Source: Escherichia coli (GTDB lineage: Bacteria; Pseudomonadota; Gammaproteobacteria; Enterobacterales; Enterobacteriaceae). From it: a stretch of 29,058 nt of DNA. Both the position numbers and the translations under genes were made by a program. Position 1 is the stretch's first letter. Each line of letters opens with the position of its first letter. Shown piece by piece: positions 13,887 to 15,971 of this stretch. A model generated the notes under the pieces. It saw only the letters and a list, made by a program, of their open reading frames with translations. It did not search any database and had not been told where the DNA came from. The stretch is taken from NCBI RefSeq assembly GCF_003334315.1, contig NZ_QOWR01000058.1. One strand, 5' to 3'.

Positions 13887-14051
13887 TTTTAGTATCTCAT
13901 TAATACGAATTTAACCATTATGCCCGATAAATTCATCCTGTAAATAATACAAATACAATACAAATAATTTCAATCAAGTGAAATTGATCACATAATGGTA
14001 TTGTTTTATCGGGCACACTGGCGCGACTATAAAAACGATCAAGTGAGGATC
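13887..14051. promoter_or_regulatory. mngR-mngA divergent promoter/operator region
   Basis: AT-rich spacer containing an 11-bp inverted repeat (tgcccgataaa near 13922; tttatcgggca near 14006) with arms about 73 bp apart, flanking the likely mngA promoter. Operator assignment is inference. Confidence 0.4.
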
Positions 14052-15971
14052 ATGATGAATCTGACGACTCTGACCCACCGCGATGCGTTGTGTCTGAATG
14101 CGCGCTTTACCAGCCGTGAAGAGGCCATCCACGCGTTGACTCAACGTCTTGCTGCTCTGGGGAAAATTTCCAGTACTGAGCAATTTCTGGAAGAAGTGTA
14201 TCGCCGTGAAAGCCTTGGCCCGACCGCCTTAGGTGAAGGGTTGGCTGTGCCGCATGGCAAAACTGCTGCGGTAAAAGAAGCGGCGTTTGCGGTCGCCACA
14301 CTCAGCGAGCCGCTTCAGTGGGAAGGCGTTGATGGCCCGGAAGCAGTTGATTTAGTGGTGCTGCTGGCGATTCCCCCCAATGAAGCGGGTACTACGCATA
14401 TGCAACTGCTGACAGCGCTGACCACGCGCCTTGCGGATGATGAGATTCGGGCGCGTATACAGTCGGCGACGACGCCTGATGAGTTGCTCTCGGCGCTGGA
14501 TGACAAGGGAGGCACGCAACCTTCTGCCTCTTTTTCCAACGCGCCAACTATCGTCTGCGTAACGGCCTGTCCGGCGGGTATTGCTCACACCTATATGGCT
14601 GCGGAATATCTGGAAAAAGCCGGACGCAAACTCGGCGTAAATGTTTACGTTGAAAAACAAGGCGCTAACGGCATTGAAGGGCGTTTAACGGCGGATCAAC
14701 TCAATAGTGCAACCGCCTGTATTTTTGCGGCTGAAGTCGCCATCAAGGAGAGTGAGCGTTTTAATGGCATTCCCGCGCTTTCAGTGCCTGTTGCCGAGCC
14801 GATTCGCCATGCAGAAGCGTTGATCCAACAAGCGCTTACCCTCAAGCGTAGCGATGAGACGCGTACCGTACAGCAAGATACGCAACCGGTGAAAAGTGTC
14901 AAAACGGAGCTGAAACAGGCACTGTTGAGCGGAATCTCTTTTGCCGTACCGTTGATTGTCGCGGGGGGCACGGTGCTGGCGGTCGCGGTATTACTGTCGC
15001 AAATCTTCGGGCTACAAGATCTGTTTAATGAAGAAAACTCCTGGCTGTGGATGTACCGCAAGCTGGGCGGCGGGCTGCTCGGAATTTTGATGGTACCGGT
15101 GCTCGCGGCCTATACCGCCTATTCTCTGGCAGATAAACCGGCGTTAGCGCCAGGCTTTGCGGCTGGACTTGCCGCCAACATGATCGGCTCCGGGTTTCTC
15201 GGCGCGGTCGTTGGCGGATTGATAGCCGGTTACTTGATGCGCTGGGTGAAAAATCACTTGCGTCTTAGCAGTAAATTCAATGGATTCCTGACTTTTTATC
15301 TCTACCCGGTGCTCGGTACGTTGGGAGCGGGCAGTCTGATGCTGTTTGTGGTGGGGGAACCTGTCGCCTGGATCAATAACTCGCTTACCGCCTGGCTGAA
15401 CGGTCTGTCAGGAAGTAACGCGCTGTTGCTGGGTGCCATTCTCGGTTTTATGTGTTCCTTTGACCTTGGAGGGCCAGTGAATAAAGCCGCTTATGCATTC
15501 TGCCTGGGCGCAATGGCGAACGGCGTTTACGGCCCGTATGCCATTTTCGCCTCCGTCAAAATGGTTTCGGCATTTACCGTAACCGCTTCCACGATGCTCG
15601 CACCGCGCCTGTTTAAAGAGTTTGAAATTGAGACCGGGAAATCCACCTGGCTGTTAGGGCTGGCAGGTATTACCGAAGGGGCGATCCCGATGGCGATTGA
15701 AGATCCGCTGCGGGTTATTGGTTCGTTTGTGCTGGGCTCTATGGTAACGGGCGCTATTGTCGGTGCGATGAATATCGGCCTTTCGACACCCGGTGCCGGC
15801 ATTTTCTCGCTCTTTTTACTTCATGATAATGGCGCGGGCGGTGTTATGGCGGCAATTGGCTGGTTTGGCGCGGCATTGGTGGGGGCTGCAATCTCGACTG
15901 CAATTCTCCTGATGTGGCGGCGTCACGCGGTTAAGCATGGCAACTATCTGACTGATGGCGTAATGCCATAA
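13995..15971 (+). CDS. mngA: 2-O-alpha-mannosyl-D-glycerate-specific PTS enzyme IIABC
   Basis: Track ORF, 658 aa; PTS EIIA-Fru-like N-terminal domain, EIIB ([19 protein letters not shown]) and a membrane EIIC domain. An alternative start at the internal Met-20 (about 14052) has the only good SD (GAGGA). Confidence 0.9.

Follow-up and report, generated by a model that had tools for sequence, protein, structure and literature searches.

The mngR-mngA locus

The window analysed here, a stretch of 29,058 nucleotides from Escherichia coli, corresponds to the sucCD-mngR-mngA-mngB region of strain K-12. The mngR gene (farR; 13164-13886, minus strand), identified from the open reading frame list and from its annotation as mngR, encodes a repressor of the GntR/HutC family. 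It stands back to back with mngA, which in its best-supported form (14055-15971, plus strand; 638 amino acids, beginning MNLTTL) encodes a PTS EIIABC transporter; PGAP annotation, conservation and a peak of in vitro initiation (INRI-seq) at a tandem ATGATG all favour this form. The two genes diverge from a 168-bp intergenic region, and positions 13887-14054 would constitute a control region common to both. The longest mngA reading frame begins inside that region, at ATG 13995-13997, and encodes 658 amino acids (MVLFYRAHW...), presumably the length also given in the UniProt MngA entry. Its 20 additional codons (13995-14054, plus strand) would be non-coding promoter and 5' leader, as argued by conservation, natural variants, domain models and INRI-seq. 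This segment appears to hold an MngR box, a -10 element, a predicted transcription start and a Shine-Dalgarno sequence, with a conserved CRP-like site upstream. The model as a whole, in which translation starts at the tandem ATGATG, 13995-14054 is promoter and leader, and MngR acts through boxes other than the arms of a nearby inverted repeat, is held with good confidence.

The translation start of mngA

Annotations of mngA differ. The K-12 reference (b0731) gives a MngA of 658 amino acids, and the curated record NC_000913.3 was the only one to keep the 13995 start among the RefSeq E. coli genomes checked; the RefSeq PGAP start was 14055 in every one of them. The initial annotation of this DNA had pointed out that the long frame lacks a Shine-Dalgarno sequence and that a good GAGGA precedes a downstream ATG, and both features are present as described. 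None of GGAG, GAGG or AGGA occurs in the 20 nt upstream of ATG 13995, and a GAGGA at 14045-14049 (plus strand) lies upstream of the tandem in-frame ATGATG (14052-14057), with a gap of 2 nt to the first ATG and 5 nt to the second. From its sequence and its conserved spacing to the ATG, this GAGGA would serve as the Shine-Dalgarno sequence of mngA. The Pfam PTS_EIIA_2 domain occupies residues 29-170 of the long frame and the alignment to NCBIfam NF007293, a profile of 639 positions, begins at residue 20 (Met-20); since both models begin after residue 19, the extension falls outside them.

A comparison of 80 species having a divergent mngR-mngA pair showed that 78 keep an ATG at the position of 14055, and that 49 of the 80 have an in-frame stop fewer than 20 codons upstream of it. 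No in-frame start equivalent to 13995 was found in other genera in this set, and the first codons of the long frame, whose conservation had been proposed as a check, are not kept in any other genus and often contain stops. The gap between GAGGA and the conserved ATG is 5 nt in 28 species and 4 nt in 9. Within E. coli, ATG 13995 is replaced by ATA in 107 of 3225 genomes (57-nt query, at least 99% identity), or about 3% of those carrying mng; direct inspection showed the ATA codon in strains elppa5 and 94EC as well as Escherichia sp. MOD1-EC7003. Strain X14-3 carries an 8-bp deletion within the extension, and its PGAP MngA is identical to the PGAP K-12 product WP_001054864.1. In the 12 genomes among the matches listed for the 57-nt query, no annotated feature covers 13969-14025.

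Published in vitro initiation data answer the question of ribosome entry raised by the initial annotation: none was seen at 13995, whereas the ATGATG gave a strong peak. The INRI-seq tables report 0 CPM at 765984 (window position 13995) in all five replicates (PMC9825163 Table S2) and a peak of 81 CPM at the in-frame ATG at +57, seen in three of the five (PMC9825163 Table S3), with both sites carried on one synthetic RNA. The in vivo values quoted in the same tables are 0 for mngA, and these are uninformative as to the start because the gene is repressed or silent.

It was thus borne out that the true start lies downstream of 13995, with the PGAP choice, the conserved ATG, the ATA variants, the domain limits and INRI-seq in agreement. 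The exact codon suggested initially, Met-20 at 14052, fared less well, as conservation and Shine-Dalgarno spacing favour 14055 (Met-21). A start at 14052 giving 639 amino acids (MMNLTTL...), or use of both ATGs, has some points in its favour: Table S3 of PMC9825163 gives the site as +57 and not +60, the NF007293 alignment runs from residue 20, and the codon is also a start in a minority of the 80 species (ATG in 15, GTG in 9, TTG in 2). Nevertheless, a non-start codon occupies this position in the other 54, the GAGGA is only 2 nt away, the gap that is conserved is the 5 nt to the downstream ATG, and PGAP selects 14055. Nor do the INRI-seq coordinates separate the two, since for a given peak every start codon located 15 ± 3 nt upstream qualifies in the script, a tolerance spanning codons 3 nt apart. 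Initiation at 14052 is therefore possible but somewhat unlikely, and translation of mngA would begin within the tandem ATGATG, with 14055 as the most probable start codon, to give 638 amino acids.

It is very unlikely that the 658-amino-acid protein nonetheless exists, whether as the principal product or as an additional long isoform expressed from a promoter further upstream. The K-12 frame is indeed open from 13995 and is used in the curated reference, and a different promoter assigned from sequence to mngA (TTAATA-19-GATAAA), from which a transcript would start near 13938 and include ATG 13995, is listed in PMC3946193. These points are set against the missing Shine-Dalgarno sequence, the zero initiation signal, the ATA alleles, an extension without counterpart in any other genus or in the protein models, and the overlap of the extra codons with conserved promoter elements. 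ATG 13995 would accordingly be no start codon at all, sitting instead inside a conserved MngR-type box (ATGGTATTG).

The situation resembles other over-extended N-termini in K-12, such as that of uidR (PMC9825163), in which a longest-frame start likewise lacks a Shine-Dalgarno sequence, conservation and an initiation signal, and the signal falls at an in-frame downstream ATG that has a Shine-Dalgarno sequence. It differs in that the mngA site is a tandem ATGATG with two candidate codons and that the gene is repressed in vivo. The evidence supports the conclusion that the reference E. coli mngA annotation begins about 20 codons early, inside the gene's own promoter.

Promoter elements of mngR and mngA

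On the minus strand, a promoter scan gave for mngR (13944-13973; 10/12) a -35 TTGAAA (13973-13968), an 18-nt spacer and a -10 TATTAT (13949-13944), and the same hexamers are listed identically in PMC3946193. Their position fits a 5' end of the mngR mRNA at 13937. That end follows from a 15-codon upstream frame (MNLSGIMVKFVLMRY and stop; 13889-13936, minus strand, translation verified) in the mngR leader, which is reported to lie 1 nt from the mRNA 5' end and 2 nt before the mngR ATG (PMC4965119 Table 1). A second promoter-like element on this strand (13917-13944; also 10/12) consists of a -35 TTTACA (13944-13939), a 16-nt spacer and a -10 CATAAT (13922-13917). Its ATTATGCC and TGTAAA blocks and their 16-nt spacing are conserved in the orthologous regions of enterobacteria, which suggests that it too may function as a promoter.

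On the mngA side, consensus and conservation identify a CRP-like site, AGTGA-N6-TCACA (AGTGAAATTGATCACA), at 13977-13992 (centre 13984.5), with 9/10 agreement to TGTGA-N6-TCACA. The site is nearly invariant, scoring 8-9/10 in most enterics and 10/10 in some Photobacterium and Aliivibrio. Downstream lies a candidate -10 for mngA, CACACT (14014-14019, plus strand), which in most enterics reads TGnCACAAT, an extended -10, and whose positions 14015 (A2) and 14019 (T6) do not vary among 36 enterics. The distance from the CRP-like centre to the first base of CACACT, 29.5 bp, is that of a class II arrangement, and transcription of mngA would start near 14026. Together with box D (13997-14006, described below) and the Shine-Dalgarno sequence, these elements would form the mngA core promoter and leader. 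A sigma-54 reading of CTGGCAC in this region was considered and rejected, since by eye E. coli has no -12 element there and the bases further downstream are unconserved.

At class II CRP-dependent promoters, for example galP1 and melR, CRP is centred at -41.5. The mngA promoter is like these in placing a 9/10 CRP-like site upstream of a conserved -10, at a distance of 29.5 bp, in having no recognisable -35, and in serving a sugar-catabolic PTS operon; it differs in that binding of CRP and dependence on it, like the start of transcription, are putative. Searches of the accessible literature found no papers linking CRP to mngA and no genome-wide transcription-start tables covering the gene.

MngR-type boxes

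The FarR (MngR) operator, in the form in which Quail, Dempsey and Guest (1994) are cited in PMC4494728, consists of direct repeats TGTATTAWTT. Scanning with the consensus as quoted there, at two mismatches or fewer, places four sites in a cluster within the 168-nt region (13898-13907, 13942-13951, 13953-13962 and 13997-14006). Box A (CGTATTAATG; 13898-13907, minus strand) matches at 8/10 and has a conserved TTAATAC block. Boxes B (TGTATTATTT, 10/10, 13942-13951) and C (TGTATTGTAT, 8/10, 13953-13962), on the minus strand and together spanning 13942-13962, were found both by the consensus scan and as direct repeat D2, and on the plus strand appear as a pair of AATACAAAT repeats at an interval of 11 bp. 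Box B is the sole exact TGTATTAWTT in the 29-kb window. The AATACAAAT repeats are nearly invariant in 36 enterics and are present in most other orthologous regions out to Vibrio. Box D (GGTATTGTTT, 8/10; 13997-14006, plus strand) is inverted relative to the others, overlaps the ATG of the long frame and belongs to a conserved block, CATAAAtGTATT; Vibrio has two clear inverted boxes at this position, after the CRP-like site.

The real MngR operator would thus be these four boxes, A at 13898-13907, the direct pair B and C at 13942-13962 and the inverted D at 13997-14006, which flank the conserved CRP-like site, with occupancy of boxes A, C and D by MngR predicted from their resemblance to the consensus. 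Repression by MngR would probably work through its binding at both promoters: at that of mngA, which would depend on CRP, it would cover the -35/spacer region, and at that of mngR the -10. The agreement with the published operator, to the extent that PMC4494728 describes it, is in the intergenic region, the repressor and the consensus, which all four boxes fit and retain across genera. The arrangement is also that of divergent promoter pairs having one control region, since mngR and mngA run back to back from the 168-bp region with repressor boxes over both promoters; it differs in that the two -10 regions of the E. coli mng pair, along with nine adjacent bases, are nearly mirror-identical, which is not so in other genera.

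The inverted repeat

This near-identity is what the initial annotation had recognised as an 11-bp inverted repeat. The repeat exists, although its coordinates required adjustment by about one base: TGCCCGATAAA at 13921-13931 is matched by a perfect complement at 14005-14015. With adjoining bases included, the arms reach 17 nt (left, CCATTATGCCCGATAAA, 13915-13931; right, TTTATCGGGCACACTGG, 14005-14021) and are complementary at 15 of 17 positions with 73 nt between them. The left arm lies inside the transcribed mngR leader and its inner part is the CATAAT -10 of the second minus-strand element; the right arm falls within codons 4-9 of the long mngA frame and contains the candidate mngA -10. The repeat exceeds the usual yield of chance in E. 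coli, as dinucleotide-preserving shuffles of the 168-nt region gave an exact inverted repeat of at least 11 nt in 8 of 1000 cases and 17-nt arms with at least 15 matches in 1 of 300.

Preservation of the repeat was not found in the orthologous regions of other genera. Only the ATTATGC part of the left arm and the GCAcAnT part of the right are conserved. Across 35 other enterobacterial sequences, arm complementarity averages 6.9 of 17, with the outer 8 nt at chance level (1.86/8) and the inner 9 nt at 5.1/9, the latter because of the -10-like ATTrTG on both sides. No covariation between the arms was detected in these sequences (49.7% of cells pair, versus 52.1% in shuffles). Natural variants alter one arm without a compensating change, as in C13924A of elppa5 and the 8-bp deletion of X14-3; for a right-arm variant in Escherichia sp. 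L006, no identical E. coli genome was present in the collection (best match 98.2%). The repeat would then consist of the -10 regions of two promoter elements that point away from each other, CATAAT (minus) and CACACT (plus), which mirror one another, together with nine further identical bases (TTTATCGGG) that are complete only in Escherichia and would have no conserved function. Common -10 elements alone are nonetheless insufficient to explain the unusual E. coli repeat, or the fact that both arms have seemingly shifted towards identity relative to Citrobacter.

One explanation for this shift is that the arms are sites specific to Escherichia for a nucleoid protein such as H-NS. The 17-bp mirror repeat would in that case be a recently evolved pair of protein sites, and a bridging protein such as H-NS, bound to a CGATAAATT-like core, would clamp both -10 regions and silence mngR and mngA. 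The left arm contains CCGATAAATT, a 9/10 match to TCGATAAATT, which is reportedly a high-affinity motif for H-NS, and the region is 25% G+C. In addition, the mngR/mngA spacer is marked 'HNS' in PMC3946193, and mngAB rises 3.4-fold on SlyA overexpression (PMC5797941). Weighing against these observations, the window has 7 one-mismatch matches to the motif, which makes the left-arm match weak, the right arm has no TCGATAAATT match within 2 mismatches, and mngAB has no entry under H-NS regulon in the SlyA table (PMC5797941). Such a clamp is improbable, but if true it would add a second layer of control above MngR and the putative CRP site, and the apparent shift of the arms to identity would reflect selection and not chance.

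Slightly less probable still is the initial proposal that each 11-bp arm is an MngR operator half-site, the pair enclosing the mngA promoter and possibly joined by DNA looping. Proteins of the GntR family bind as dimers, and the arms form a significant inverted repeat in E. coli, flank the region of the CRP-like site and adjoin MngR-type boxes, one arm abutting box D and the other lying between A and B. However, the arm sequence TGCCCGATAAA is unlike the boxes, and neither arm matches TGTATTAWTT, as that direct repeat is quoted in PMC4494728, within 2 mismatches. Nor does a HutC-type palindrome (GTMTAKAC core, GT-N4-AC) occur in 13887-14054 with 1 mismatch or fewer. Despite an MngR identity of 70-84% in the 35 other enterobacterial sequences, the outer arm halves are unconserved and do not covary in them, and the E. 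coli variants noted above change a single arm. Looping is further disfavoured by the centre-to-centre distance of 90 bp, about 8.6 helical turns, which places the arms out of phase. What survives of the proposal is that MngR-type sites bracket the mngA promoter region, in the form of the oppositely oriented conserved boxes and not of the arm sequences. Almost no weight can be given to an RNA hairpin controlling mngA or mngR, for although a hypothetical RNA of 13905-14035 folds through the repeat (-26.8 kcal/mol, z = -3.3), no known or predicted transcript has both arms (mngR begins at 13937; mngA near 14026, or near 13938 according to PMC3946193) and the arms do not covary. The inverted repeat thus appears to be mostly two back-to-back promoter elements and not a repressor binding site.

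Conclusions

In summary, comparative evidence, the annotation pipeline and in vitro initiation agree that MngA has 638 or 639 amino acids. The finding is an ordinary annotation correction, in substance already known; the practical gain is a small correction, and the understanding of such systems is unchanged by it. For cloning of mngA, reporter fusions and engineering of its 5' region, 13995-14054 should be treated as promoter and leader and not as coding sequence. The analysis also yields a map of the control region of mngA that experiments can test, in which MngR boxes would lie around a conserved CRP-like site with an extended -10 downstream.

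The mng locus and the mngA start codon

The window region is the sucC-sucD-mngR-mngA-mngB-cydA segment of E. coli K-12, with a 100% match to K-12 records (the window coordinate is the NC_000913.3 coordinate minus 751,989). The mngR gene lies at 13164-13886 on the minus strand, and the longest mngA open reading frame at 13995-15971 on the plus strand. Of the 5426 complete genomes of E. coli, only 3320 contain the control region (query 13860-14120), which makes the mng locus an accessory one in this species. NC_000913.3 also annotates the SdhX small RNA at 13061-13161 (plus strand), in the 3' region of sucD and immediately ahead of the point where the convergent mngR gene ends.

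The ATG at 13995, which opens a 658-codon frame, is the mngA (b0731) start in the curated NC_000913.3 record (765,984), and inspection of the sequence upstream of it revealed no Shine-Dalgarno-like purine run. A GAGGA at 14045-14049 is followed by tc and a tandem ATGATG (14052-14057), ending 2 nt before the ATG at 14052 and 5 nt before that at 14055. PGAP places the start at 14055 (638 aa, MNLTTL...) in all the other RefSeq genomes of E. coli that were inspected, and in 12 of 12 genomes among the matches listed for a 57-nt query (13969-14025) no annotated feature covers that stretch. Pfam PTS_EIIA_2 (model positions 5-143) spans residues 29-170 of the long frame and the NCBIfam equivalog NF007293 (639 positions) aligns to residues 20-658, with residues 1-19 falling outside both models.

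With each species represented by a single genome, a scan recovered 80 loci in genera ranging from Citrobacter and Enterobacter to Vibrio, Photobacterium and Aeromonas, with a divergent upstream mngR in all 78 having enough upstream sequence (the other two end at a contig edge). The first residue of the 638-aa form is where MngA homology starts, and an ATG occupies the position equivalent to 14055 in 78 of the 80 species; the codon equivalent to 14052 is ATG in 15, GTG in 9, TTG in 2 and a non-start codon in 54. An in-frame stop lies fewer than 20 codons upstream in 49/80, and GAGGA precedes the conserved ATG by 5 nt in 28/80 and by 4 nt in 9/80. The ATG at 13995 is itself polymorphic within Escherichia: G13997A changes it to ATA in elppa5, 94EC and Escherichia sp. 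MOD1-EC7003, and 107 of the 3225 complete genomes of E. coli contain a match (at least 99% identity) to the ATA version of the 57-nt query. An 8-bp deletion in E. coli X14-3 (CGGGCACA, 14010-14017) would frameshift the long frame; PGAP nonetheless calls its MngA, identical to the PGAP K-12 product WP_001054864.1.

Initiation was mapped by INRI-seq, in which a synthetic E. coli transcriptome was translated in vitro with retapamulin (PMC9825163). The mngA RNA ran from 13965 to past 14100, so that both candidate starts were on one molecule, and it was plentiful in the pool (142.65 CPM). The annotated start at 765,984 (13995) was not detected (0 CPM in 5/5 replicates), the in-frame ATG at +57 (14052) was detected (81 CPM, 3/5 replicates), and an in-frame GTG at +48 (14043) was not called (8.7 CPM, 1/5 replicates) (PMC9825163). 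In vivo Ribo-RET values for mngA are zero because the operon is repressed. The PGAP annotation, 80-species conservation, ATA variants, protein models and INRI-seq together support the proposal of the initial annotation that mngA starts downstream of 13995. That proposal had named 14052 (Met-20); the downstream ATGATG holds, with 14055 the likelier codon. INRI-seq assigns a peak to a start codon lying 15 ± 3 nt upstream of it and therefore does not separate the two (PMC9825163), and 14055 is more likely from conservation and Shine-Dalgarno spacing, 5 nt being the conserved spacing. Initiation at 14052, or at both ATGs, seems rather unlikely.

The inverted repeat and the MngR operator

All the sequence features first described at this site are present (the 13995 frame lacking a Shine-Dalgarno, GAGGA before ATGATG, and the 11-bp repeat). 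The sequence TGCCCGATAAA at 13921-13931 has its exact complement at 14005-14015, with no other copies in the window, and the repeat extends to 17-nt arms (CCATTATGCCCGATAAA and TTTATCGGGCACACTGG; 13915-13931 and 14005-14021) that are 15/17 complementary. When the 168-nt intergenic region was shuffled with its dinucleotides preserved, 8 of 1000 shuffles contained an exact inverted repeat of 11 nt and 1 of 300 showed 15/17 arm complementarity; the repeat is thus not a typical chance event in E. coli.

Alignment of 36 enterobacterial control regions revealed near-invariant blocks: TTAATAC (13900-13906), ATTATGCC (13917-13924), TGTAAAtAATACAAATnnAATACAAAT (13939-13965), AGTGAAAnTGATCACATAAAtGTATT (13977-14002) and ctgGCAcAAT (14010-14019 in E. 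coli). Within the arms, conservation is confined to the parts shared with ATTATGCC and ctgGCAcAAT. In the 35 other sequences mean column-wise arm complementarity is 6.9/17, with the inner 9 nt at 5.1/9 and the outer 8 nt at chance level (1.86/8). No covariation between the arms was found (49.7% paired cells vs 52.1% in shuffles), the covariation score being lower than in 499 of 500 shuffles, and one-arm changes without compensation occur in E. coli (C13924A in elppa5; the X14-3 deletion). Judged from these alignments, the arms are not a conserved protein-binding pair, despite 70-84% MngR identity in the compared species. The left arm reads TTTATCGGG-CATAAT-GG on the minus strand and the right arm TTTATCGGG-CACACT-GG on the plus strand. 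Full identity of the nine extra bases TTTATCGGG is restricted to Escherichia, with partial identity in Citrobacter amalonaticus (arms 12/17); relative to Citrobacter, changes in both arms of the E. coli repeat seem to have brought the two closer to identity, which is the one residual oddity.

Two further repeats lie here. A perfect 9-nt inverted repeat (ACCATTATG and CATAATGGT, 13914-13922 and 13991-13999) shares bases with the left arm and includes the ATG at 13995; its second copy is CATAAATGT in most other enterics, which shifts the ATG by one base, out of the mngA frame. An 18-nt direct repeat (78%; 13964-13981 and 14029-14046) with an exact 9-mer ATCAAGTGA, one copy on the left half of a CRP-like site and the other running into the Shine-Dalgarno, is probably due to chance.

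According to Quail et al. 1994, as cited in PMC4494728, TGTATTAWTT is the direct repeat to which FarR (now MngR) responds as its recognition sequence. The sole exact copy in the 29-kb window is at 13942-13951 (minus strand), and the same 168 nt hold three more sites with 2 mismatches each, at 13898-13907 (minus), 13953-13962 (minus) and 13997-14006 (plus); at the window-wide density (37 matches in 29 kb), a stretch of this length would be expected to hold about 0.2. The repeat arms are not among these four sites, and the HutC-type GTMTAKAC core is absent from the intergenic region. The suggestion that the arms are MngR operator half-sites, possibly looping, is thus not borne out: they are unlike TGTATTAWTT, contain no HutC core, and show neither conservation nor covariation as a pair. 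An inverted repeat does bracket the promoter, that of the TGTATT boxes rather than the 11-bp arms.

Probable promoter elements

A promoter-like element has CATAAT (13922-13917) as its -10 and TTTACA (13944-13939) as its -35; it scored 10/12 in a scan with a 16-nt spacer, and both hexamers and their spacing are conserved in enterics. CACACT (14014-14019) aligns with CACAAT, GACAAT, CAAGAT and similar hexamers of other enterics; its positions 2 (A, 14015) and 6 (T, 14019) are invariant in 36/36 sequences, and a TG two bases upstream in most species makes an extended -10. From this conservation the conserved core of the repeat appears to be two divergent -10 regions.

A CRP-like site, AGTGA-N6-TCACA (AGTGAAATTGATCACA, 13977-13992), matches the CRP consensus at 9/10, is conserved in most enterics, and reaches 10/10 in some Photobacterium and Aliivibrio. 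From its centre (13984.5) to the start of CACACT is 29.5 bp, the spacing of class II CRP-dependent promoters (site at -41.5, -10 at -12 to -7). This suggests that mngAB may be a class II CRP-dependent operon, of which no published statement was found in the literature searched, and the geometry would predict a transcription start near 14026 with a 29-nt leader. MngR-type boxes flank the CRP-like site, two direct copies upstream (13942-13962) and one inverted copy directly downstream (13997-14006), between it and the -10; Vibrio has two clear inverted boxes downstream, ATTTGTATT then GGTATTATT, the second holding a TATTAT -10. The mngR promoter, TTGAAA-18-TATTAT (promoter scan; PMC3946193), is also overlapped by the upstream boxes at its -10. 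We infer CRP and MngR occupancy of these particular sites, as well as the mngA transcription start. The ATG at 13995 would then be part of the downstream box, and the first 20 codons of the long frame would run through that box, the -10, the start site and the Shine-Dalgarno.

Transcription from the mngR promoter begins at 13937, and the resulting mRNA contains a 15-codon upstream ORF (PMC4965119), confirmed in the window sequence at 13889-13936 (minus strand). In the same frame, INRI-seq gave a 37 CPM peak (4/5 replicates) at an ATG at 13898-13900 (minus), 14 nt upstream of the mngR start, and only about 6 CPM at the annotated start (PMC9825163). In X14-3 the 8-bp deletion eliminates the candidate mngA -10 along with most of the right arm. 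In E. coli 1217KP a natural 157-bp deletion (equivalent to 13865-14021) fuses mngR codon 8 straight to the mngA leader, so that the start of mngR is lost together with every promoter and every MngR box; both genes are still annotated by PGAP.

A different putative mngA promoter, TTAATA-19-GATAAA, is listed in PMC3946193; its -10 would be the outer part of the left arm and its transcript would start near 13938. Initiation at 13995 was not seen by INRI-seq even with an RNA of this kind (PMC9825163). H-NS binding at an arm is an idea prompted by a 9/10 motif match in one arm, the low G+C (25%) of the region and the 'HNS' flag on the mngR/mngA spacer in PMC3946193. An RNA hairpin formed by the arms is possible on paper, but no known or predicted transcript spans both.

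In summary, the feature itself is ordinary, and the start-codon correction is already embodied in the PGAP annotation and a published supplementary table; its chief use lies in fixing the mngA start in the K-12 reference annotation.
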